In this document: in pieces, positions 160 through 41,867 of the stretch | Layout of the letters: every line of letters starts with the position of its first letter | How positions within the stretch are numbered: the stretch's first letter is position 1 | DNA from: Octopus vulgaris | Taxonomy: Eukaryota | DNA: 64,000 bases | Direction of reading: 5' to 3' | Assembly (NCBI GenBank): GCA_951406725.2 | Contig: OX597821.1 | Location: 91,450,001-91,514,000 of the forward strand | Notes under the pieces: generated by a model | Database searches by the model: none | The model's input: only the letters and a program-made list of their open reading frames with translations | What the model was told of the DNA's origin: nothing | Made by a program: the position numbers and the translations under genes

Positions 160-208
<49 letters not shown>

Positions 209-375
209 TCTTCATGGTAATGGCGATTTGATATCTATGTTTAGCATATTAGGTGTCCACTTTAGTGGTCATTCCTCTTAATTTTGTATGTAACGCAATT
301 TTTAATCTTCAGATTTTTTAAAATACTGCTAAACCACTGGTTTTAATTCATTAATATCAATTTCTACCCTTATTA

Positions 376-380
<5 letters not shown>
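52..380. mobile_element. (TA)n-embedded foldback element with ~84-bp inverted arms (52-135 / 208-292); probable non-autonomous Penelope-like derivative
   Basis: 52-135 is the near-perfect reverse complement of 208-292. The arms are separated by a short spacer and (CA)n, and both outer flanks are (TA)n. Confidence 0.6.
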
Positions 381-415
<35 letters not shown>

Positions 416-880
416 TATAGGTTAGAGGAAGGTGTATTTTTCTATATAGAATACACTTTGAAGTGCTCAAGAGATTTGATGAGTAAATGTAATGATAAGT
501 ATGTTAAGCAAGTCGATCTACACAAAATATTAAATGCATTTAATAGAAAAAAATGTACATGTGTACAGATATATTCCATCTTTAAACTCCATCCTGTCAA
601 CACCTCAAATGTAAAAGTCTCCAATGTAAAATTATCCCCTGAAGATGGAGGCAGTATCATCCAATAATGTATTCAAGTAACAATCATTATTCCTAAGCAC
701 AAGCCCCCAGACACAGCTGTTGGGCTCCTAAACCTCTACTCGTTTAACTACTAATATTACTTATTGTTTGTAAGTTCAACTATTTTATATCCATACACAT
801 ATACATTTTTTTCTATGAAATATATTTAATATTCTGTGTAACTCGACTCACCCAACTTGCTTGTCATTACATTGGATCAC

Positions 881-1282
881 AGGCGCAGGAGTGGCTGTGT
901 GGTAAGTAGCTTGTTTACCAACCATATGGTTCCAGGTTCAGTCCCACTGCGTGGCACCTTGGGCAAGTGTCTTCTACTATAGCCTCGGTCCGACCAAAGC
1001 CTTGTGAGTGGATTTGGTAGACAGAAACTGAAAGAAGCCCGTCGTATATATGTATATATATGTGTGTGTGTGCGTGTATGTTTGTGTTTGTCCCCTTAAC
1101 ATTGCTTGACAACCGATGCTGGTGTGTTTATGTCCCCGTCACTTAGCGGTTCGGCAAAAGAGATTGATAGAATAAGTACTAGGCTTACAATGAATAAGTC
1201 CTGGGGTTGAGTTCCTTGATTAAAGGCGGTGCTCCAGCATGGCTGCAGTCAAATGACTGAAACAAGTAAAAGATTAAAGAGT
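881..1282 (+). mobile_element. tRNA-derived SINE, family A (full length)
   Basis: Head ggcgcaggagtggctgtgtggtaag with B-box-like ggttcagtccc, internal (TA)/(TG) tract and 3' gaaacaagtaaaaga; more than 10 homologous copies in the window. Confidence 0.9.
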
Positions 1283-1610
1283 ATATATATATGTATCAAT
1301 AGATAAAGAGATATAGATAGATAGACAATTACATCCATCCATCCATACATACATGATGATGGCCATCCACTCGTGACCAAGGAAGACCATTGCTGACTTT
1401 CAGGAACATTGCGTGCTCTAGGATTAACTTATATTTTGCATTTGTGGCCCTCTTGGTTATTAATGAGCCCTACTCTTGACAAGTATACATGACTACAAAC
1501 ATTGGAAAGCGAGCTTTCCCCATTCCCTACACCAGCAATGCACTTTCGAGTAGGACATTTAAGTTCTTCAAGCAGAATACGTGCTCTCTCAAAGGTGTCG
1601 ACCCCACCTC

Positions 1611-2003
1611 CTTAACCTGCTTCCCAACCACAAGGTTTTGGGTTCAGTCCCACTACATGGCATCTTGGGCAAGTGTCTTCTACAATAGCCTCAGGCCAAC
1701 CAAAGCCTTGTGAGTAGATTTAGTGGACAAAAACTGAAAGAAACCCGTCGTATGTGTCTGTGTGTGTGTGTATGTGTGTTTGTGTGTGTGTGTGTATTTG
1801 TGTTTCTGTTTGTTGTTCCACCATCACTTGACAGCCGATGCTGGTGTGTTTACATCCCTGTAACTTAGCGTTCCAGCAAAAGAAACTGACAGAATAAGTA
1901 CTAGGCTTACAAAGAACGAGTCCTAGGATCGATTTGTTCAACTAATGGTAGTGCTCCAGCAGAGCCACAGTCAAATGACTGAAACAAATAAAAGAATAAA
2001 AGA
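1611..2003 (+). mobile_element. SINE family A, 5'-truncated
   Basis: Homologous to 881-1282. Confidence 0.85.
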
Positions 2004-2013
2004 GATTGGCTAC

Positions 2014-3379
2014 AAGGCAGTGAACTGGCAGAATTGTTAGCATGCTGGACGAAATGCTTAGCAGTAGTTCACTTGTGGCTATGATCTGAGTTCAAATTCT
2101 GCCAAGATCAACTTTGCCTTTCATCCTTTCAGGGTCGATAAATTAAGTACCAGTTGTGTACTTGGGTCAGTCTAATCGACTGACCCCCTCCCATCAAATT
2201 TCAGGCCTTGTGCCTATAATAGAAAAGATTATTACTATAGGTTACAAATTTTGGCACAAGGCCAGCAATTTCAGGGGAGGGAATAAGTTGATTATATCAA
2301 ATCCTGTGGCGAGCTGGCAGAACCGTTAGCACGCCGGGCGAAATGCGTAGCCGTATTTCGTCTGCCGTTACGTTCTGAGTTCAAATTCCGCTGAGGTCGA
2401 CTTTGCCTTTCATCCTTTTGGGGTCGACAAATTAAGTACCAGTTACACACTGGGGTCGATATGATCGACTTAATCCGTTTGTCCTCTCTATGTTTAGCCC
2501 CTTGTGGATAGAAAAGAAACCTATATCAAATCCTGTATTTAACTGGTACTTCTTTTTATCAACCCCAAAAGAATGACAGGCAAAGTTGACCTTCGTGGAT
2601 TTGAACTCAGAACCTAAAGATTTATGAACAGCCACAAGGCATTCAGCCTGGTGTGGTAACAATTCTGCCAGCTCGTTATTTTATTATAATTATCAACATT
2701 AAAATCATTCTCATTATCAGGTGGTGAGCTGGTAAGATCATTAGCACAATAGGCAAAAATCTCAGCAGCATTTCATCCATCCTCACGATCTGAGTTCAAA
2801 TTCCACCAAAGTCGACTTTCCCTTTCATCCTTTTTGGGGTCGATAAAATAAATACCAGTTGAACACTGGGGTTGATGTAATTGACTCACCCTCTTCTCCA
2901 AAATTGCTGGCCTTGCACCAAAATTTTCAATTAATATCAAAGTCATTATGAAGGCAATTGAGCTGGCAGATTAATTAACATGCTAGATAAAATTCTTAGT
3001 AGTACTTCATCCACCTCTTTATTTCCTGAATTCCAACCTTTTATGTCTTGAGTTCAAATATACCTAGGGTTAACTTTTCCTCTCTGAGGTCAACTTTGCC
3101 GTTCATTCTCTTGGAGTTGATAAAATAAGTAGCAGTTGAGTACTGGTATTGATGTAATTAATTCACCCCCTCCTCAAAGTTGCTGGCCTTGTACTTATGA
3201 ATTTGGGTCTTTGTAACATTTCTTCTGTCTGACATGGTTTACTGTTTACACTTATATTTTTAAAACACCATTGTAATAATTTTATTATTATCGTCTTATG
3301 CAGAGGGAAGAAAAAAATTTGAACCCAAATATATATATATGCTAGAATAATAATAATAATAATTATTATTATTATTATA

Positions 3380-3416
<37 letters not shown>

Positions 3417-3650
3417 TAATAATAGTAATAATTGCTATCATTATTAAGTCAGCAAGCTGCTAGAATCATTAGCATAGTGGGAGAAATGCTTAGCAGCATT
3501 TTGACTATCTTTACATTCTGAATTCAAATTCTACTGTGGTCCACTTTGCATTTCATCCTTTCGGGGGTTGATAAATTAAGTACCAGTTGTGTACTGGGGT
3601 CGATCTAAGCGACTGTTCTCCTCCCGCCAAATTTCAGGCCTTGTACCTAT
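2014..3650. mobile_element. Cluster of about 6 SINE family B copies (tRNA head plus Meta-like central domain), both strands, partly nested
   Basis: Recurrent gagctggcagaa..gttagc (A box), gagttcaaattcc (B box) and gtcgactttgcctttcatcctttcggggtcgataaattaagtaccag at ~2014, 2308, 2720, 2950 and 3445; a minus-strand copy at 2230-2680 is split by the 2308 copy. Confidence 0.85.
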
Positions 3651-3672
3651 TATTATTATCATTATTATTATT

Positions 3673-3727
<55 letters not shown>

Positions 3728-3751
3728 GTATTAGTATTATTCTTATTATTA

Positions 3752-4222
3752 TTTTATGTTTGACTTTTGCTTTACATCTGTACAAGTTGGTGCCAAGCCT
3801 CACCCAGAGACCTCAAGAGACAACAAGTTGGAAGTTCATGTTGGTGTTATGCCTAGGAAGCCATATATTTGGTTTTGTACTTAGTGTTGTACTAGTGAAT
3901 GCCTAAAAAACCATACGAAAATTATGTTTGTTTTAAAACTTGTGATTACATAGAAAGTATTTTGCGTAGGATATGAGCAGTTCCCATGAGCACTGTCTTT
4001 TTAATTTCTACCATTTTGGGATTTCCTGGTATCTGAGCTAAGTAGCAATCAGCCCCTTTTGCTATCATTCCTAGGACACCTATCACAACAGGTATTGTTT
4101 TAGTCTTCAGGTTCCACATTTTGGTAATTTCTATTTCAAGATCTTTATATTTGCTCAGTTTTTGGTAGGTCTTGACAGATACGTTTATATCGATTGGCAC
4201 AGTCATATCAATGAAGGGGCAT
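3752..4222 (-). mobile_element. 3' end of an R4/Dong-like non-LTR retrotransposon (restriction-enzyme-like endonuclease C-terminus plus 3'UTR) inserted in (TAA)n
   Basis: ORF 3946-4206 reads (LID)MTVPIDINVSVKTYQKLSKYKDLEIEITKMW...IPVVIGVLG...GTAHILRKIL, a typical REL endonuclease tail; both flanks are (ATT)n. Confidence 0.8.
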
Positions 4223-4267
4223 GATTATTATTATTAGTATTAGTGTTGTTATTATTATTATTATTAT

Positions 4268-4325
<58 letters not shown>

Positions 4326-4492
4326 GCTATTGTAGTTGTTGCAGTTATCACCACTACTACTATTATCACAATTTCTACTACTACTACAACCACCACCACC
4401 ACCACTGCTACTACTACTATTATTTTTGATTCTATTATCGTTATTATTATTAATATTATTATTATTGTTATTATTATTATTGTTATTATCAT

Positions 4493-4565
<73 letters not shown>

Positions 4566-4681
4566 GTAGTTGTTGCAGTTATCACTGCTGCTATCACCAC
4601 TACTACTATTATCACAATTTCTACTACTACTACAACCACCACCACCACTGCTACTACTATTATTATTATTTATACTATTAC

Positions 4682-4726
<45 letters not shown>

Positions 4727-4925
4727 CATTATTATTATTATTATCATTATTATTATTACTATTATTACTATTATTATTATTATTACTATTATTATTATTA
4801 TTATTATTATTACTATTATCATTATTATTATTATCATTATTATTATTACTATTACTATTATTATTATTACTATTACTATTGTTATTATTACTATTATTAC
4901 TATTATTATTATTATTATTATTACT

Positions 4926-4958
<33 letters not shown>
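4223..4958. repeat. Compound (ATT)n/(ACT)n/(ACC)n microsatellite with an internal duplication
   Basis: Trinucleotide tracts; the block gtagttgttgcagttatca...caatttctactactactacaaccaccacc occurs at ~4333 and ~4566. Confidence 0.9.
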
Positions 4959-5448
4959 TCTAACAATATTAAAAGAACCAGAAAAGGTGGAGAAATAAAA
5001 TAAAAAAAAACTAAGACAAAAGACAAACACAAAAACAACAACGTAAGGCTTTTGGTAGACTGGCTGCTGGAAAGTAACAAGCACTCTTGATAAATATTGT
5101 GGTTTTCACAAATGGAAAGCAAACCGTTTCTGCCTGGCTTGCACGGTGCATGAATTACCTCACACCTCGCACAGCTCTCTGCACCTCACTACATCGCTCT
5201 GCCCCGCAGTGCTTGAAGGATTTATTGCAATCTGTCTTGAGAAAAATGTCCACTCTGGATGATCAATTTCTCAAATATGTTTGCTACAATACATTTATCA
5301 TTTTCACGCTCCGCCGGTCAACACCAGACACAGTGCTTTTATTGAAAAACGAGCCAAATATAAGTAAATAAATAACTAAATAACTAAATAACTAAATAAA
5401 AAAAATAAAAACTTTCCAGGAACGCTGCAAAGGAATAAATGGCAAATA

Positions 5449-24308: not shown

Positions 24309-25078
24309 GTTTAAATATTTGTTGTGCAAGATTTTTTATGTGAAGTCGTGTGTTGAAACAGATATTGTTATATTTCGGATTGGTAATTTTGCCAGTTTAG
24401 ACAATAAAAACACACGCACTATATATTTGGTGTTATTTTGCTTCAGCGTTATTTATTTTTTACATTAATCTTAATCTTATTTCGGCCAGAGTTCTTTCGT
24501 CACACTCCTGTTTCTTCTTTCTTATTTGTGTCTCTCCTTACTAACCGTCAGCCATTTTGTATTTCTATTGTATGTCTTCATTTGCGCATGCTTATATCTC
24601 TATGTGCGTCTATGTTTATTTAGTGTGTGTGTGGGGGATGCCTGTAATATTTGTATCTTCTGTTTATATACATTCATGTAATTTGTTTTTGTTGTTGTTG
24701 TTTTTGTTTTTTCTTATTTTCTTCACGTGTTTACATCCACTTATTATTATTATCATTACGTATACTTGTATGTATATATAACAACAATACTAGTAATAAT
24801 AATATTAATAATAAATTTAAAAAAATCTTTTAAATTAAATAAATAAATAAATAAATAAGGATAAATTATTAGCTGCTCAGTTATAGATATAAACTCTATA
24901 GAGAAAGCACTTAGTGCTCTTTATGTATTGAGCACTAAGAAGTAAAATTGTAAATATTTTCCACATACATAATTTTTCTGAGCATGCTAACTACATGCTG
25001 CCAATATTCATTTATATGTGTTTATGTATATTCATGTATATGTGTGCACATATACACACACACACACACACTCACACA

Positions 25079-25105
<27 letters not shown>

Positions 25106-25111
<6 letters not shown>

Positions 25112-26487
25112 GTCCCGGGTTGATTCGGGGTTAACCACAGTAAGTAAGGTACTCAATACATAGCAGAGTAAAATTAATTTATTATATAGAAGGAGCTTCT
25201 ACAGGACTAGTACTGTTTCATTCAAGAGAAATCTTCAGGAAGCTATTTAACAAGAATTGTATTAGCATTTATACATTTAGGCAGGTTTAGTAATGTTCTT
25301 CAGGGAAGTGTCGAGGTCGATTCTTGTCAGCATTTTTCTTGGTGATGGTTATAAGGGCACTAGGGTGTGCTAGGATATGTAGGTCCCGGGTTGATTCGGG
25401 GTTAACCACAGTAAGTAAGGTACTCAATACATAGCAGAGTAAAATTAATTTATTATATAGAAGGAGCTTCTACAGGACTAGTACTGTTTCATTGAAGAGA
25501 AATCTTCAGGAAGCTATTTAACAAGAATTGTATTAGCATTTATACATTTAGGCAGGTTTAGTAATGTTCTTCAGGGAAGTGTCGAGGTCGATTCTTGTCA
25601 GCATTTTTCTTGGTGATGGTTATAAGGGCACTAGGGTGTGCTAGGATATGTAGGTCCCGGGTTGATTCGGGGTTAACCACAGTAAGTAAGGTACTCAATA
25701 CATAGCAGAGTAAAATTAATTTATTATATAGAAGGAGCTTCTACAGGACTAGTACTGTTTCATTCAAGAGAAATCTTCAGGAAGCTATTTAACAAGAATT
25801 GTATTAGCATTTATACATTTAGGCAGGTTTAGTAATGTTCTTCAGGGAAGTGTCGAGGTCGATTCTTGTCAGCATTTTTCTTGGTGATGGTTATAAGGGC
25901 ACTAGGGTGTGCTAGGATATGTAGGTCCCGGGTTGATTCGGGGTTAACCACAGTAAGTAAGGTACTCAATACATAGCAGAGTAAAATTAATTTATTATAT
26001 AGAAGGAGCTTCTACAGGACTAGTACTGTTTCATTCAAGAGAAATCTTCAGGAAGCTATTTAACAAGAATTGTATTAGCATTTATACATTTAGGCAGGTT
26101 TAGTAATGTTCTTCAGGGAAGTGTCGAGGTCGATTCTTGTCAGCATTTTTCTTGGTGATGGTTATAAGGGCACTAGGGTGTGCTAGGATATGTAGGTCCC
26201 GGGTTGATTCGGGGTTAACCACAGTAAGTAAGGTACTCAATACATAGCAGAGTAAAATTAATTTATTATATAGAAGGAGCTTCTACAGGACTAGTACTGT
26301 TTCATTCAAGAGAAATCTTCAGGAAGCTATTTAACAAGAATTGTATTAGCATTTATACATTTAGGCAGGTTTAGTAATGTTCTTCAGGGAAGTGTCGAGG
26401 TCGATTCTTGTCAGCATTTTTCTTGGTGATGGTTATAAGGGCACTAGGGTGTGCTAGGATATGTAGGTCCCGGGTTGATTCGGGGTT
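25106..26487 (-). repeat. 271-bp tandem repeat, left arm (5.1 units, hammerhead on the minus strand)
   Basis: aggtcccggg recurs at 25110, 25381, 25652, 25923, 26194 and 26465 (exact 271 spacing). Confidence 0.97.
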
Positions 26488-29400
26488 CTTACTTACTGTG
26501 GTTAACCCCGAATCAACCCAGGACCTACATATCCTAGCACACCCTAGTGCCCTTATAACCATCACCAAGAAAAATGCTGACAAGAATCGACCTCACACTT
26601 CCCTGAAGAACATTACTAAACCTGCCTAAATGTATAAATGCTAATACAATTCTTGTTAAATAACTTCTGAAGATTTCTCTTGAATGAAACAGTACTAGTC
26701 CTGTAGAAACTCCTTCTATATAATAAATTAATTTTACTCTGCTATGTATTGAGTACCTTACTGTGGTTAACCCCGAATCAACCCGGGACCTACATATCCT
26801 AGCACACCCTAGTGCCCTTATAACCATCACCAAGAAAAATGCTGACAAGAATCGACCTCATTACTCCCTGAAGAACATTACTAAACCTGCCTAAATGTAT
26901 AAATGCTAATACAATTCTTGTTAAATAGCTTCCTGAAGATTTCTCTTGAATGAAACAGTACTAGTCTGTAAACTCCTTCTATATAATAAATTAATTTTAC
27001 TCTGCTATGTATTGAGTACCTTACTTACTGTGGTTAACCCCAGATCAAAGGGACTAGCATATCCTAGCACACCCTAGTGCCCTATAACCATCACCAAAAA
27101 ATGCTGACAAGAATCCACCTCGACACTTCCCTGAAGAACATTACTAAACCTGCCTAAATGTATAAATGCTAATACAATTCTTGTTAAATAACTTCCTGAA
27201 GATTTCTCTTGAATGAAACAGTACTAGTCCTGTAAACTCCTTCTATATAATAAATTAATTTTACTCTGCAATGTATTGAGTACCTTACTTACTGTGGTTA
27301 ACCCGAATCAACCCGGGACCTACATATCCTAGCACACCCTAGTGCCCTTATAACCATCACCAAGAAAAATGCTGACAAGAATCACCTCACACTTCCCTGA
27401 AGAACATTACTAAACCTGCCTAAATGTATAAATGCTAATACAATTCTTGTTAAATAGCTTCCTGAAGATTTCTCTTGAATGAAACAGTACTAGTCCTGTA
27501 GAAGCTCCTTCTATATAATAAATTAATTTTACTCTGCTATGTATTGAGTACCTTACTTACTGTGGTTAACCCCGAATCAACCCGGGACCTACATATCCTA
27601 GCACACCCTAGTGCCCTTATAACCATCACCAAGAAAAATGCTGACAAGAATCCACCTCGACACTTCCCTGAAGAACATTACTAAACCTGCCTAAATGTAT
27701 AAATGCTAATACAATTCTTGTTAAATAGCTTCCTGAAGATTTCTCTTGAATGAAACAGTACTAGTCTGTAGAAGCTCCTTCTATATAATAAATTAACTTT
27801 ACTCTGCTATGTATTGAGTACCTTACTTACTGTGGTTAACCCCGAATCAACCCGGGACCTACATATCCTAGCACACCCTAGTGCCCTTATAACCATCACC
27901 AAGAAAAATGCTGACAAGAATCGACCTCGACACTTCCCTGAAGAACATTACTAAACCTGCCTAAATGTATAAATGCTAATACAATTCTTGTTAAATAGCT
28001 TCCTGAAGATTTCTCTTGAATGAAACAGTACTAGTCCTGTAGAAGCTCCTTCTATATAATAAATTAATTTTACTCTGCTATGTATTGAGTACCTTACTTA
28101 CTGTGGTTAACCCCGAATCAACCCGGGACCTACATATCCTAGCACACCCTAGTGCCCTTATAACCATCACCAAGAAAAATGCTGACAAGAATCGACCTCG
28201 ACACTTCCCTGAAGAACATTACTAAACCTGCCTAAATGTATAAATGCTAATACAATTCTTGTTAAATAGCTTCCTGAAGATTTCTCTTGAATGAAACAGT
28301 ACTAGTCCTGTAGAAGCTCCTTCTATATAATAAATTAATTTTACTCTGCTATGTATTGAGTACCTTACTTACTGTGGTTAACCCCGAATCAACCCGGGAC
28401 CTACATATCCTAGCACACCTAGTGCCCTTATAACCATCACCAAGAAAAATGCTGACAAGAATCGACCTCGACACTTCCCTGAAGAACATTACTAAACCTG
28501 CCTAAATGTATAAATGCTAATACAATTCTTGTTAAATAGCTTCCTGAAGATTTCTCTTGAATGAAACAGTACTAGTCCTGTAGAAGCTCCTTCTATATAA
28601 TAAATTAATTTTACTCTGCTATGTATTGAGTACCTTACTTACTGTGGTTAACCCCGAATCAACCCGGGACCTACATATCCTAGCACACCCTAGTGCCCTT
28701 ATAACCATCACCAAGAAAAATGCTGACAAGAATCGACCTCGACACTTCCCTGAAGAACATTACTAAACCTGCCTAAATGTATAAATGCTAATACAATTCT
28801 TGTTAAATAACTTCCTGAAGATTTCTCTTGAATGAAACAGTACTAGTCCTGTAGAAGCTCCTTACTTACTGTGGTTAACCCCGAATCAACCCGGGACCTA
28901 CATATCCTAGCACACCCTTGTGCCCTTATAACCATCACCAAGAAAAATGCTGACAAGAATCGACCTCGACACTTCCCTGAAGAACATTACTAAACCTGCC
29001 TAAATGTATAAATGCTAATACAATTCTTGTTAAATAGCTTCCTGAAGATTTCTCTTGAATGAAACAGTACTAGTCCTGTAGAAGCTCCTTCTATATAATA
29101 AATTAATTTTACTCTGCTATGTATTGAGTACCTTACTTACTGTGGTTAACCCCGAATCAACCCGGGACCTACATATCCTAGCACACCCTAGTGCCCTTAT
29201 AACCATCACCAAGAAAAATGCTGACAAGAATCGACCTCGACACTTCCCTGAAGAACATTACTAAACCTGCCTAAATGTATAAATGCTAATACAATTCTTG
29301 TTAAATAGCTTCCTGAAGATTTCTCTTGAATGAAACAGTACTAGTCCTGTAGAAGCTCCTTCTATATAATAAATTAATTTTACTCTGCAATGTATTGAGT

Positions 29401-32400
29401 ACCTTACTTACTGTGGTTAACCCCGAATCAACCCGGGACCTACATATCCTAGCACACCCTAGTGCCCTTATAACCATCACCAAGAAAAATGCTGACAAGA
29501 ATCGACCTCGACACTTCCCTGAAGAACATTACTAAACCTGCCTAAATGTATAAATGCTAATACAATTCTTGTTAAATAGCTTCCTGAAGATTTCTCTTGA
29601 ATGAAACAGTACTAGTCCTGTAGAAGCTCCTTCTATATAATAAATTAATTTTACTCTGCTATGTATTGAGTACCTTACTTACTGTGGTTAACCCCGAATC
29701 AACCCGGGACCTACATATCCTAGCACACCCTAGTGCCCTTATAACCATCACCAAGAAAAATGCTGACAAGAATCCACCTCGACACTTCCCTGAAGAACAT
29801 TACTAAACCTGCCTAAATGTATAAATGCTAATACAATTCTTGTTAAATAGCTTCCTGAAGATTTCTCTTGAATGAAACAGTACTAGTCCTGTAGAAGCTC
29901 CTTCTATATAATAAATTAACTTTACTCTGCTATGTATTGAGTACCTTACTTACTGTGGTTAACCCCGAATCAACCCGGGACCTACATATCCTAGCACACC
30001 CTAGTGCCCTTATAACCATCACCAAGAAAAATGCTGACAAGAATCGACCTCGACACTTCCCTGAAGAACATTACTAAACCTGCCTAAATGTATAAATGCT
30101 AATACAATTCTTGTTAAATAGCTTCCTGAAGATTTCTCTTGAATGAAACAGTACTAGTCCTGTAGAAGCTCCTTCTATATAATAAATTAATTTTACTCTG
30201 CTATGTATTGAGTACCTTACTTACTGTGGTTAACCCCGAATCAACCCGGGACCTACATATCCTAGCACACCCTAGTGCCCTTATAACCATCACCAAGAAA
30301 AATGCTGACAAGAATCCACCTCGACACTTCCCTGAAGAACATTACTAAACCTGCCTAAATGTATAAATGCTAATACAATTCTTGTTAAATAGCTTCCTGA
30401 AGATTTCTCTTGAATGAAACAGTACTAGTCCTGTAGAAGCTCCTTCTATATAATAAATTAACTTTACTCTGCTATGTATTGAGTACCTTACTTACTGTGG
30501 TTAACCCCGAATCAACCCGGGACCTACATATCCTAGCACACCCTAGTGCCCTTATAACCATCACCAAGAAAAATGCTGACAAGAATCGACCTCGACACTT
30601 CCCTGAAGAACATTACTAAACCTGCCTAAATGTATAAATGCTAATACAATTCTTGTTAAATAGCTTCCTGAAGATTTCTCTTGAATGAAACAGTACTAGT
30701 CCTGTAGAAGCTCCTTCTATATAATAAATTAATTTTACTCTGCTATGTATTGAGTACCTTACTTACTGTGGTTAACCCCGAATCAACCCGGGACCTACAT
30801 ATCCTAGCACACCCTAGTGCCCTTATAACCATCACCAAGAAAAATGCTGACAAGAATCGACCTCGACACTTCCCTGAAGAACATTACTAAACCTGCCTAA
30901 ATGTATAAATGCTAATACAATTCTTGTTAAATAGCTTCCTGAAGATTTCTCTTGAATGAAACAGTACTAGTCCTGTAGAAGCTCCTTCTATATAATAAAT
31001 TAATTTTACTCTGCTATGTATTGAGTACCTTACTTACTGTGGTTAACCCCGAATCAACCCGGGACCTACATATCCTAGCACACCCTAGTGCCCTTATAAC
31101 CATCACCAAGAAAAATGCTGACAAGAATCGACCTCGACACTTCCCTGAAGAACATTACTAAACCTGCCTAAATGTATAAATGCTAATACAATTCTTGTTA
31201 AATAGCTTCCTGAAGATTTCTCTTGAATGAAACAGTACTAGTCCTGTAGAAGCTCCTTCTATATAATAAATTAATTTTACTCTGCTATGTATTGAGTACC
31301 TTACTTACTGTGGTTAACCCCGAATCAACCCGGGACCTACATATCCTAGCACACCCTAGTGCCCTTATAACCATCACCAAGAAAATGCTGACAAGAATCG
31401 ACCTCGACACTTCCCTGAAGAACATTACTAAACCTGCCTAAATGTATAAATGCTAATACAATTCTTGTTAAATAGCTTCCTGAAGATTTCTCTTGAATGA
31501 AACAGTACTAGTCCTGTAGAAGCTCCTTACTTACTGTGGTTAACCCCGAATCAACCCGGGACCTACATATCCTAGCACACCCTTGTGCCCTTATAACCAT
31601 CACCAAGAAAAATGCTGACAAGAATCGACCTCGACACTTCCCTGAAGAACATTACTAAACCTGCCTAAATGTATAAATGCTAATACAATTCTTGTTAAAT
31701 AGCTTCCTGAAGATTTCTCTTGAATGAAACAGTACTAGTCCTGTAGAAGCTCCTTCTATATAATAAATTAATTTTACTCTGCTATGTATTGAGTACCTTA
31801 CTTACTGTGGTTAACCCCGAATCAACCCGGGACCTACATATCCTAGCACACCCTAGTGCCCTTATAACCATCACCAAGAAAAATGCTGACAAGAATCGAC
31901 CTCGACACTTCCCTGAAGAACATTACTAAACCTGCCTAAATGTATAAATGCTAATACAATTCTTGTTAAATAGCTTCCTGAAGATTTCTCTTGAATGAAA
32001 CAGTACTAGTCCTGTAGAAGCTCCTTCTATATAATAAATTAATTTTACTCTGCAATGTATTGAGTACCTTACTTACTGTGGTTAACCCCGAATCAACCCG
32101 GGACCTACATATCCTAGCACACCCTAGTGCCCTTATAACCATCACCAAGAAAAATGCTGACAAGAATCGACCTCGACACTTCCCTGAAGAACATTACTAA
32201 ACCTGCCTAAATGTATAAATGCTAATACAATTCTTGTTAAATAGCTTCCTGAAGATTTCTCTTGAATGAAACAGTACTAGTCCTGTAGAAGCTCCTTCTA
32301 TATAATAAATTAATTTTACTCTGCTATGTATTGAGTACCTTACTTACTGTGGTTAACCCCGAATCAACCCGGGACCTACATATCCTAGCACACCCTAGTG

Positions 32401-33388
32401 CCCTTATAACCATCACCAAGAAAAATGCTGACAAGAATCCACCTCGACACTTCCCTGAAGAACATTACTAAACCTGCCTAAATGTATAAATGCTAATACA
32501 ATTCTTGTTAAATAGCTTCCTGAAGATTTCTCTTGAATGAAACAGTACTAGTCCTGTAGAAGCTCCTTCTATATAATAAATTAACTTTACTCTGCTATGT
32601 ATTGAGTACCTTACTTACTGTGGTTAACCCCGAATCAACCCGGGACCTACATATCCTAGCACACCCTAGTGCCCTTATAACCATCACCAAGAAAAATGCT
32701 GACAAGAATCGACCTCGACACTTCCCTGAAGAACATTACTAAACCTGCCTAAATGTATAAATGCTAATACAATTCTTGTTAAATAGCTTCCTGAAGATTT
32801 CTCTTGAATGAAACAGTACTAGTCCTGTAGAAGCTCCTTCTATATAATAAATTAATTTTACTCTGCTATGTATTGAGTACCTTACTTACTGTGGTTAACC
32901 CCGAATCAACCCGGGACCTACATATCCTAGCACACCCTAGTGCCCTTATAACCATCACCAAGAAAAATGCTGACAAGAATCGACCTCGACACTTCCCTGA
33001 AGAACATTACTAAACCTGCCTAAATGTATAAATGCTAATACAATTCTTGTTAAATAGCTTCCTGAAGATTTCTCTTCAATGAAACAGTACTAGTCCTGTA
33101 GAAGCTCCTTCTATATAATAAATTAATTTTACTCTGCTATGTATTGAGTACCTTACTTACTGTGGTTAACCCCGAATCAACCCGGGACCTACATATCCTA
33201 GCACACCCTAGTGCCCTTATAACCATCACCAAGAAAAATGCTGACAAGAATCGACCTCGACACTTCCCTGAAGAACATTACTAAACCTGCCTAAATGTAT
33301 AAATGCTAATACAATTCTTGTTAAATAGCTTCCTGAAGATTTCTCTTGAATGAAACAGTACTAGTCCTGTAGAAGCTCCTTCTATATA

Positions 33389-33393
<5 letters not shown>
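26488..33393 (+). repeat. 271-bp tandem repeat, right arm (~26 units, hammerhead on the plus strand); retrozyme-like array
   Basis: Reverse complement of the left-arm unit, near-identical copies; two units carry a 45-bp deletion. Confidence 0.97.
27997..28047 (+). ncRNA. Type I hammerhead ribozyme (representative copy; one per 271-bp unit)
   Basis: Stem I AGCTTC/GAAGCT; core CTGAAGA 28003-28009; stem II t-TTC-tctt-GAA-t; GAA; stem III ACAG-tactagtc-CTGT; predicted cleavage after GUA (A28041). Confidence 0.85.
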
Positions 33394-33440
<47 letters not shown>

Positions 33441-33451
<11 letters not shown>

Positions 33452-33640
33452 TATAGAAGGAGCTACAGGACTAGAACTGTTTCATTCAAGAGAAATCTTC
33501 AGGAAGAGCTTCCTGAAGATTTCTCTTGAATGAAACAGTCCTAGTCCTGTAGAAGCTCCTTCTATATAATAAATTAATTTTACTCTGCTATGTATTGAGT
33601 ACCTTATTTACTGTGGTTAACCCCGAATCAACCCGGGACC

Positions 33641-33645
<5 letters not shown>
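33441..33645. mobile_element. Terminal module: inverted partial unit plus direct partial unit of the 271-bp repeat, between (TA)n tracts
   Basis: 33441-33506 is a minus-orientation hammerhead region and 33507-33645 is plus orientation ending gggacctacat(at)n; it carries private SNPs. Confidence 0.85.
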
Positions 33646-33678
<33 letters not shown>

Positions 33679-33683
33679 CATAT

Positions 33684-39011: not shown

Positions 39012-39800
39012 AAGGCGACGAGCTGACAGAAACGTAAGCACGCCGGGTGAAATGCTTGCCGGTATTTCGTCTGCCGTTACGTTCTGAGTTCAAATTCCGC
39101 CGAGGTCGACTTTGCCTTTCATCCTTTCGGGGTCGATTAAATAAATACCAGTTACGCACTGGGGTCGATATAATCGACTTAATCCGTTTGTCTGTCCTTG
39201 TTTGTCCTCTCTGTGTTTAGCCCCTTGTGAGTAATAAAGAAATAGGTATTTCCTCTGCCGCTACGTTCTGAGTTCAAATTCCGCCGAGGTCGACTTTGCC
39301 TTTCATCCTTTCGGGGGTCGATTAAATAAATACCAGTTACGCACTGGGGGCGATATAATCGACTTAATCCGTTTGTCTGTCCTTGTTTGTCCTCTATTTG
39401 TGTTTAGCCCCTTGTGAGTAGTGAAGAAATAAGTATTTCCTTTGCCGCTACGTTCTGAGTTCAAATTCCGCCGAGGGCGACTTTGCCTTTCATCCTTTCG
39501 GGGGTCGATTAAATAAATACCAGTTACGCACTGGGGGCGATATAATCGACTTAATCCGTTTGTCTGTCCTTGTTTGTCCTCTCTGTGTTTAGCCCCTTGT
39601 GAGTAATAAAGAAATAGGTATTTCCTCTGCCGCTACGTTCTGAGTTCAAATTCCGCCGAGGGCGACTTTGCCTTTTATCCTTTCGGGGTCGATTAAATAA
39701 GTGCCAGTTATCCACTAGGGTCGATATAATCGACTTAATCTGTTTATCTGTCCTTGTTCGTCCCCTCTGGGTGCAGCTCTTTGTGGGTAGTAAAGAAAAA
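39012..39800 (+). repeat. Tandem array of 4 SINE family B bodies (~185-bp period)
   Basis: tacgttctgagttcaaattccgccgagg...gccccttgtgagta repeated 4 times; only the first copy has the A-box head. Confidence 0.9.
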
Positions 39801-40689: not shown

Positions 40690-41019
40690 ATTTTTCCTCC
40701 TTTTCCACTGTCCAAAGAAGGATAACATCTGAAATGTTACTGCGCTTAATTCTTACCATTTCCCTAAGCAACAAACTTATATTATTGATGGTAAACTTAT
40801 TTCACCTATACATGATTGTGTATGTATGTATGTACGTATGTATGCATGTATGTATGTATGTATGTATGTACCAAGTTGTCAAAAGATTTTTCGTATTTCA
40901 AGCTTTAATTAAAAATTCAAAGAAACTAGATCCGAAAAGCCTTTAATCATCAAAATATAACTCATCATATTTTATTCTCTGATGCCAATAATGCAGAGGG
41001 GACAAACAATGCATAGTGG

Positions 41020-41867
41020 TGTTTCGTCTGTCATTACGTTCTGAGTTCAAATTCCGTTGAGGTCAACTTTGCCTTTCATCCTTTCGGGGGTCGATTAAAT
41101 AAGTGCCAGTTACGTGCTGGGGTCGATGTAATCGACTTAATCCCTTTGTCTGTCCTTGTTTGTCCCCTCTGTGTTTAGCCCCTTGTGGGTAATAAAGAAA
41201 TAGGTATTTCGTCTGCGAGCTGGCAGAATCGTTAGCACGCCGGACGGAATGCTTAGCGGTATTTCGTCTGTCTTCACATTCTGAGTTCAAATTCCGCCGA
41301 GGTCGACTTTGCCTTTCATCCTTTCGGGGGTCGATTAAATAAGTGCCAGTTACGTGCTGGGGTCGATGTAATCGACTTAATCCCTTTGTCTGTCCTTGTT
41401 TGTCCCCTCTGTGTTTAGCCCCTTGTGGGTAATAAAGAAATAGGTATTTCGTCTGCGAGCTGGCAGAATCGTTAGCACGCCGGACGGAATGCTTAGCGGT
41501 ATTTCGTCTGTCTTCACATTCTGAGTTCAAATTCCGCCGAGGTCGACTTTGCCTTTCATCCTTTCGGGGTCGATTAAATAAGTACCAGTTACGCACTGGG
41601 GTCGATATAATCGACTTAATCCGTTTGTCTGTCCTTGTTTGTCCTCTCTGTGTTTAGCCCCTTGTGGGTAGTACAGAAATAGGTATTTCGTCTGCCATTA
41701 CGTTCTGAGTTCAAATTCCGTTGAGGTCAACTTTGCCTTTCATCCTTTCGGGGGTCGATTAAATAAGTGCCAGTTACGTGCTGGGGTCGATGTAATCGAC
41801 TTAATCCCTTTGTCTGTCCTTGTTTGTCCATTCTATGCTTAGCCCCTTGTGGGCAATAAAGAAAGAA
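41020..41867 (+). repeat. Tandem array of 4 SINE family B bodies (periods 240, 240, ~184)
   Basis: ctgagttcaaattccg at 41041, 41281, 41521 and 41705; two units include the A-box head. Confidence 0.9.

Follow-up and report, generated by a model that had tools for sequence, protein, structure and literature searches.

In this study, an array of short tandem repeats carrying hammerhead ribozymes was analysed in a stretch of Octopus vulgaris DNA (assembly GCA_951406725.2, contig OX597821.1, positions 91,450,001 to 91,514,000 of the forward strand), hereafter the 64-kb window, and related to a Penelope-like element (PLE) found elsewhere in the same genome. The array is about 8.3 kb long and forms a single head-to-head insertion into a (TA)n tract, with 5 minus-strand and 26 plus-strand units. 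Unit positions are numbered from the predicted cleavage site: q1 is the first base 3′ of it (28042 in the reference unit), −1 is the A of the GUA triplet and −45 is the first base of stem I. The genome searched comprised 2.80 Gb in 227 contigs. The features of the locus are as follows, with RT standing for reverse transcriptase.

25078–25107: (TA)n target, left flank.
25104–26487, minus strand: inverted arm of 5.1 units; its 3′ end is q96 (long RT start site), joined to (TA)n.
26488–33394, plus strand: forward arm, holding 26 hammerheads and ending 3′ at q23 (short RT start site), where it joins (TA)n.
26488–27500, plus strand: four units directly after the inversion centre, with many small deletions of 1–4 nt.
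27997–28047, plus strand: representative type I hammerhead with U10.1·U11.1, a stem II with tetraloop, and an 8-nt stem III loop with the palindrome ACUAGU.
28042–28224, plus strand: q1–183 of the unit, equal to positions 1–183 of the parent monomer; includes the two RT start sites and the beginning of the parent open reading frame (ORF).
28223–28312, plus strand: final 90 nt of the parent monomer (5104–5193), ending in the 5′ portion of the next hammerhead.
28854–29080, plus strand: 227-nt unit lacking q7–50 and then carrying A110T; the same pair recurs at 31519–31745.
33077, plus strand: G248C, which disrupts stem II and recurs at 25494 in the minus arm.
33383–33455: (TA)n separating the array from a mini-insertion.
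33442–33647: separate palindromic mini-insertion (206 bp), with a q25 arm on the minus and a q96 arm on the plus strand.
33644–33683: (TA)n, right flank.

The locus therefore runs in the order (TA)n, 5.1 minus units, 26 plus ribozymes, (TA)n, 206-bp palindromic module and (TA)n. An earlier note, made from the letters of the window alone, had described a tandem satellite of near-identical 271-bp units, each with a hammerhead. The units are indeed tandem, but not head to tail throughout, as the 5.1 minus units are joined head to head with the 26 plus units; the unit length is 271 bp except for two units of 227 nt. The note's count of 33 motifs, 31 in the array and two in the terminal module, was reproduced. 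Its assignment of that module to the array was rejected: the module inserted separately, having (TA)n flanks and q25 and q96 ends of its own, both arms stopping near −45 and an older genotype (q56 T), and it is of a type that occurs in thousands genome-wide. Independent insertions accumulate in the same (TA)n tract at L034, L072 and L084, and in the window at 33383–33683. Within the forward arm, units 18–13, counted from the 3′ end, repeat units 8–3, and the repeated variant blocks are copies added later by duplication or by mis-assembly. G248C occupies the second ribozyme from the 3′ end in both arms and occurs in no other unit. The small deletions at 26488–27500 are likely hairpin-related sequencing errors, as are those in deletion-rich units just past the inversion centre of a second array, the C5 array described below.

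Each motif comprises a 6-bp stem I (AGCUUC/GAAGCU), the CUGAAGA core, a U·U pair, a 3-bp stem II, GAAA, a 4-bp stem III and GUA, and cleavage is predicted between 28041 and 28042. The full hammerhead descriptor (CUGANGA...GAAA core, three stems, NUH site and open stem I) was satisfied by 26 of the 33 motifs, including 25 of the 31 in the array; it had no other match in the window and none in 3000 shuffled units. The 271-bp unit with a type I hammerhead and a GUA site is thus as the note described it, although six array motifs fail the descriptor through two stem II changes (G248C), one stem I change and three error-rich units. An Rfam search, which the note had proposed, returned no hammerhead match at the gathering score over the whole window and none at E ≤ 10 over 701 bases. 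The U·U at the base of stem II, which had been called atypical, is present in 14 of 25 Hydra-clade PLE families by our own count from File S2 of PMC8557442. Recurrent variants, defined as those present in at least 5% of 216 aligned segments, affected 0 of 38 constrained ribozyme positions versus 4 of 13 free ones (p = 0.003) and were confined to N7, loop II and loop III. The ribozyme variants included no compensatory changes. The predicted energy of the hammerhead fold is −7.3 to −8.5 kcal/mol. Within the unit, the predicted pairing probability of stem I is about 0, no extended stem I is apparent in the computed folds, and the 271-nt circle is predicted to be weakly self-paired (z about −2, 52% paired). 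Because loop III contains a palindrome, two ribozymes can pair through it, with a predicted energy of −15.2 kcal/mol versus −1.4 kcal/mol for the hairpin. At position −12, the subfamily to which the array belongs extends this palindrome from 4 to 6 nt, which changes the predicted dimer energy from −12.8 to −15.2 kcal/mol.

The unit corresponds to positions 1–183 plus 5104–5193 of a parent monomer at 99–100% identity, with nt 184–5103 removed and a 2-nt TA overlap at the junction (28223–28224). It keeps the ribozyme, both RT start sites and the first 15 codons of the parent ORF, whose ATG at 28179 opens an 18-residue peptide in the unit. Dispersed matches to q1–183 elsewhere in the genome are heads of the parent element. 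The parent monomer of 5193 nt occurs in tandem at L033, and its ORF is uninterrupted in L039. Among loci L033–L049, many assembled parents have the ORF split into 506 + 225 amino acids at one place, while L039 is open; the split may be a real variant or an assembly error. The 3′ region of the parent (L033:2260–5110) comprises about 2.9 kb of microsatellite-rich sequence, doubling the usual Hydra length.

The parent protein has 713 amino acids from the Met, with YRDD and YIG and the motifs RWR38 (for RWK), DKT116, CNCHDKTTC567, CDLC667 and CMH695. It has at least 1081 relatives at E ≤ 1e-20, and its look-alike clusters carry GIY-YIG and RVT_1. Searches of Pfam and PDB with the ORF sequence gave no informative match; the predicted structure (pLDDT, the model's own confidence score, 93.8) has telomerase RTs (TERTs) as its five best PDB matches. 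The parent also bears the PLE-typical (TA)n target, a hammerhead in the pseudo-long terminal repeat (pLTR), an inverted 5′ copy and a tail at one end. By its motifs and a by-eye comparison with the printed Hydra-1_Obim protein, the parent is placed as a young Hydra-clade PLE. The note's expectation of a young element moved by a Penelope-like RT was supported, whereas its retrozyme family was not: the 271-nt deletion junction occurs 31 times in 2.8 Gb, identical in every copy and always at this locus, in both arms, and the unit is a deletion of an autonomous element. A dispersed 271-nt family was therefore rejected.

Comparable arrays were sought with two exact 24-mers in the head (61 and 47 matches, 108 in total), a search that diverged arrays would escape. 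The matches revealed two other large arrays only, each a single locus with its own deletion and likewise head-to-head.

L031:3312–7212: C2 array, 277-nt unit, arms of 1697 and 2204 bp, breakpoints 194/5111.
L032:1421–9267: C5 array, 333-nt unit, arms of 6576 and 1271 bp, breakpoints 201/5061, with a 7-unit higher-order repeat.

Small deletion cases have breakpoints at q200 (L050) and q204 (L058). Across all cases the left breakpoints lie at q183–204, and therefore the ORF start is kept in all of them. Splicing was rejected as the origin of the deletions, as the three junctions overlap by 2, 0 and 1 nt and are without donor-acceptor ends.

The ends of the insertions follow a rule. The q96 end joined to (TA)n occurs 4368 times in the genome and the exact q23 end 1454 times. 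On C1, where the first 100 q96 ends were compared with 39 exact q23 ends, every outward pair within 16 kb combined q96 with q23 (25/25), with no q96/q96 and no q23/q23 pair; 14 q23 ends in this sample had no listed partner. At 66 loci drawn from the first 68 q96 ends, a tally that leaves out the two long loci L078 and L079, the short ends lay at q21–27. Sister arms shared subfamily markers in 31/31, 31/31, 38/39 and 43/43 pairs, versus 0.53–0.63 between loci, and the closest long arm was the sister for 9 of 10 arms; part of this sharing could stem from gene conversion between arms or from shared age. This pairing of unlike ends within one insertion is observed directly, and priming on both target strands would be its mechanism.

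Many arms stop on the first base of the ribozyme. The q96 arms ended exactly at −45 in 19 of 65 cases and the short arms in 9 of 43, a count that ignores alignments under 25 nt. Altogether, 84 arms begin at −45 without upstream element sequence; the partner arm could account for 57 of them, and these were excluded. In 21 of the 27 clear cases, a G directly precedes −45 (p = 1e-8 versus 0.25), and of 51 genomic bases at −46 none is a G, all being T, A or C. An untemplated G is a known mark of RT copying a cap. Because this extra cap-like G precedes −45, transcription of the parent probably starts on the first base of the ribozyme and yields a capped RNA, as judged from the copy ends. A spliced 5′ exon behind the −45 stop was rejected, as only a G and no constant exon precedes −45. 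The AGCT palindrome was likewise rejected as the sole cause of the peak: it explains 31 of the 84 arms, and joins to unrelated sequence stop there too. Just before −43, every unit contains a branch-like CTAAT, a pyrimidine stretch and YAG (27974–27998 in the window), resembling a 3′ splice site; the intron of D. virilis Penelope ends at helix I (PMC4209133).

A smaller set of arms ends at the predicted cleavage site. First mismatches numbered 67 at q4, 260 at q2, 117 at q1, 68 at −1 and 47 at −3, the five positions that the profile covers (q3 and −2 lie outside it). Hand-checking of samples identified true arm ends in 1/20, 4/30, 19–20/30, 8/20 and 1/20, respectively; the script had called 10 at q4, of which 9 were unrelated sequence by eye, and 5–7 at q2. 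Scaled to the counts, these correspond to about 3 (q4), 35 (q2), 74 (q1), 27 (−1) and 2 (−3) arm ends. Two sampled pairs were both arms of a single insertion, and at L153/L154 filler separates two arms that both end at q1. Overall, about 1–1.5% of arms end at the cleavage site and about 98–99% run through an intact site.

A linear RNA that starts at −45 would lead one to expect that full-length copies stop at −45 too. Among copies with the full ORF, however, 1 of 25 reaching −37 stopped within −53 to −37, versus 34 of 49 first-pass arms (p = 4e-8; 34 of 51 once the two long arms left out above are included), and 21 of 28 full-ORF heads run past −100. Of the 24 second-pass arms, 14 pass the U-rich zone at about −200 to −330 and continue beyond −380. 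Since the same deletion junction stands in both arms, it was already in the template. The 31 identical joins of the array, set against the non-identical joins of a tandem at L061, point to a covalent circle or DNA duplication and not to repeated template jumps. This second tandem (L061:3299–3818, C7) consists of units from −45 to q111 with two unlike joins, the outcome expected if template jumps had occurred repeatedly from a capped 5′ end. At L070:6317–6628 (C15), a 125-nt unit that begins at the cleavage site and extends to q125 is repeated about 2.7 times in tandem; its joins are identical, it lacks a ribozyme, and it may derive from a circle of the cleaved 3′ product.

On this basis, the array is read as one retrotransposition event of a Hydra-clade PLE, in which a circular RNA was primed twice and rolled and the product was then duplicated at the DNA level; we assign this reading a probability of roughly 55%. 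Transcription of the parent would begin at the hammerhead's first base and yield a capped RNA. The (TA)n target would be cut on both strands, each of which would prime cDNA on the same RNA, one at q96 and the other at q22–27, thereby producing a head-to-head pair. On linear capped RNA, both cDNAs would run off at −45 and leave palindromes of about 220 bp. Cleavage by two hammerheads followed by ligation would give a circle without the −45 end, and this could be the source of full-length and more-than-unit copies. A deleted circle of 271 nt would have been rolled several times from both primers, and the repeated variant blocks indicate that part of the 26-unit arm was duplicated afterwards or mis-assembled. 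Cleavage, expression and the circles themselves are what we infer from genomic copies. A wider claim falls a little short of even odds in our judgement, namely that the family records a full PLE cycle: a capped start on the hammerhead, a protein dimer priming both strands of a (TA)n break from two fixed sites on one RNA, circles made by ribozyme cleavage and ligation as the sole source of full-length and tandem copies, and mini-circles that integrate as retrozyme-like arrays, caught three times at birth.

Several observations weigh against this interpretation. Preferential conservation of core and stems, which the earlier note had named as a test, is seen within the ribozyme, but the entire segment from −45 to q96 is conserved beyond the ribozyme alone (3 of 90 positions vary in q7–96). 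In the context of the unit, the computed hammerhead fold lies 3–4 kcal/mol above the best fold. At the cleavage site, 9 of the 30 sampled q1 ends could be joins at 6-nt stem I microhomology, leaving about 40, and an RT pause before stem III could mimic such ends. Of the second-pass arms, 10 of 24 ended in the U-rich zone, compared with 10 of 39 on the first pass (p = 0.27); judged by eye, and with the false hit L073 dropped, the counts become 9 of 23 and about 6 of 39. Some templates may thus have their start in that upstream zone. The higher-order repeats, here and in the C5 array, mean that DNA duplication made part of the copy number. Under a monomeric circle, G248C in both arms needs gene conversion or a polishing error, whereas a multimeric linear template suffices. 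The anole PLE used mainly uncleaved RNA in vitro, and none of its RNA-seq reads ended at the cleavage site (PMC11167929); 8 of 9 Xenopus retrozyme dimers failed to cleave (bioRxiv 10.64898/2026.07.22.740005).

Some of these points would be accommodated if the array were a second-generation copy, in which an older array with the same deletion, absent from the assembly, gave an uncleaved multimeric linear transcript that a Hydra RT primed twice in one unit. Its main support is G248C at an equal ordinal place in both arms, and it agrees with uncleaved RNA as the main PLE substrate in vitro and with the large majority of arms that pass through an intact cleavage site. We nevertheless consider it unlikely: no donor is found in 2.8 Gb, among the 108 24-mer matches none of the three large arrays turns up at a second locus, and the first multimer still requires an origin. 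If it were true, the unit would already behave as a propagating retrozyme.

Circles might also be dispensed with altogether, if linear read-through of tandem PLE loci, together with RT template jumps, left a seed of one or two units in each arm and the remaining units arose by unequal crossing-over, with the ribozyme as a passenger; the local-amplification model of bioRxiv 10.64898/2026.07.22.740005 is of this kind. Higher-order repeats, the U-rich stop zone upstream and the frequency of template jumps in the family (9 of 18 partial heads end near −45) agree with it, and read-through from tandem or host promoters is possible: in a partial tandem of Penelope, transcription begins in the upstream copy (PMC2377424). 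Such a history is improbable, however, as both arms are multimeric in all three arrays and share a junction that was hence in the template, and the 14 second-pass arms past −380 need donors of at least three units or outside promoters; two full units were seen only at L033 among the fetched loci, most of which were truncated at 10 kb. Very improbable is a third possibility, in which the insertion is real but most of its size and symmetry arose when a long palindrome was misassembled. The error-rich units after the inversion centre, here and in the C5 array, the exact recurrence of variant blocks and G248C in both arms would fit it, but the head-to-head order with q96 and q23 ends is the family rule at dozens of unrelated loci, and the two arms end differently, each in a family-typical way.

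The preferred reading of a twice-primed circular RNA bears on questions left by earlier work. Circular templates for PLEs were proposed in 2014 without a test (PMC4209133), the role of the PLE hammerhead in vivo has been called unclear (PMC8557442), and it was dispensable in vitro (PMC11167929). The copy ends described here suggest that such elements are copied from circular RNA. The family thereby offers countable genomic evidence on the role of the hammerhead, on the origin of pseudo-LTRs and of tandem and inverted insertions, and on the birth of retrozymes. It also supplies the parts of a small test system: a circle of 271 nt, two start sites separated by 73 nt, (TA)n as the target and a protein of 713 amino acids. 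Considered only as a locus, the array adds a new example to a kind already known; its interest lies in a mechanism made testable by the ends of the family. Our literature search, which lay outside subscription journals, Repbase and Dfam, did not find the locus, the rule of one start site per strand, the cap signature or cDNA ends at the cleavage site.

Elsewhere in the window, no tRNA genes were found in the 64 kb, and short tandem arrays of another, SINE-like (short interspersed element-like) repeat lie at 39061–39798 and 41008–41864 (187 bp × 4; 240 bp × 2.9; 185 bp × 2), in which the descriptor detected no hammerhead.

The parent is closest to the Hydra-clade PLEs (Craig et al. 2021, PMC8557442), including Hydra-1_Obim, with which it has in common the RT, a C-terminal YIG nuclease motif, the RWR, DKT, CxCX5C, CxxC and CxH motifs, the (TA)n target, a U·U hammerhead, an inverted 5′-truncated copy and a tail on one end. 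Its ribozyme sequence differs from that of Hydra-1_Obim, and it is therefore another family. Its monomer of 5.2 kb is longer than the described Hydra-clade elements (mostly <3 kb) because of the microsatellite-rich 3′ region, and its tail measures 73 nt against 30–40 nt in theirs. The array itself, unlike these elements, has lost nearly the whole ORF. In Poseidon PAc of the green anole, studied in vitro (Frangieh et al. 2024, PMC11167929), two internal RT start sites also bound the tail, both target strands are cut and extended, and sequence of the ORF start is needed in the minimal RNA, which parallels the ORF start kept in all deletions here. The Poseidon ribozyme is inactive without protein. 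Its authors saw no strand difference in start site and no RNA ends at the cleavage site, whereas in the octopus family each insertion uses one start site per strand and a small share of cDNAs end at that site.

Metazoan non-LTR retrozymes (Cervera and de la Pena 2020, PMC7229834), such as newt satellite 2 and Sm-alpha, resemble the array in their tandem, low-GC (38%) units of 150–450 nt with one type I hammerhead each and no protein; a PLE has been proposed as their mover, with rolling reverse transcription on a circle (PMC7229834). In Schistosoma, hammerhead pairs lie on opposite strands 100–700 bp apart (PMC4209133). The array would work like the proposed retrozyme pathway (PMC7229834, PMC4209133). 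It differs in being a single locus and not a family, with head-to-head arms, fixed ends and no visible target duplication, and in having a PLE-type ribozyme that probably needs a dimer or protein. Under the definition of Li et al. (a tandem repeat with at least two consecutive complete hammerheads and a fold below −5 kcal/mol; bioRxiv 10.64898/2026.07.22.740005), the array counts as a retrozyme. Li, Clavereau and Pollet (2026) already conclude there that retrozymes derive from PLEs. They demonstrate homology to pLTRs in Xenopus, and the process they favour is that a terminal sequence was amplified locally. Here, by contrast, the unit is an internal deletion of a whole monomer, found in three independent arrays that each carry both parental insertion ends. 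Because neither a self-propagating family at multiple loci nor, by prediction, a highly self-paired circle with a free ribozyme was found, we do not file the array as a retrozyme family; it is a non-autonomous deletion array of a Hydra-clade PLE, a retrozyme in the making.

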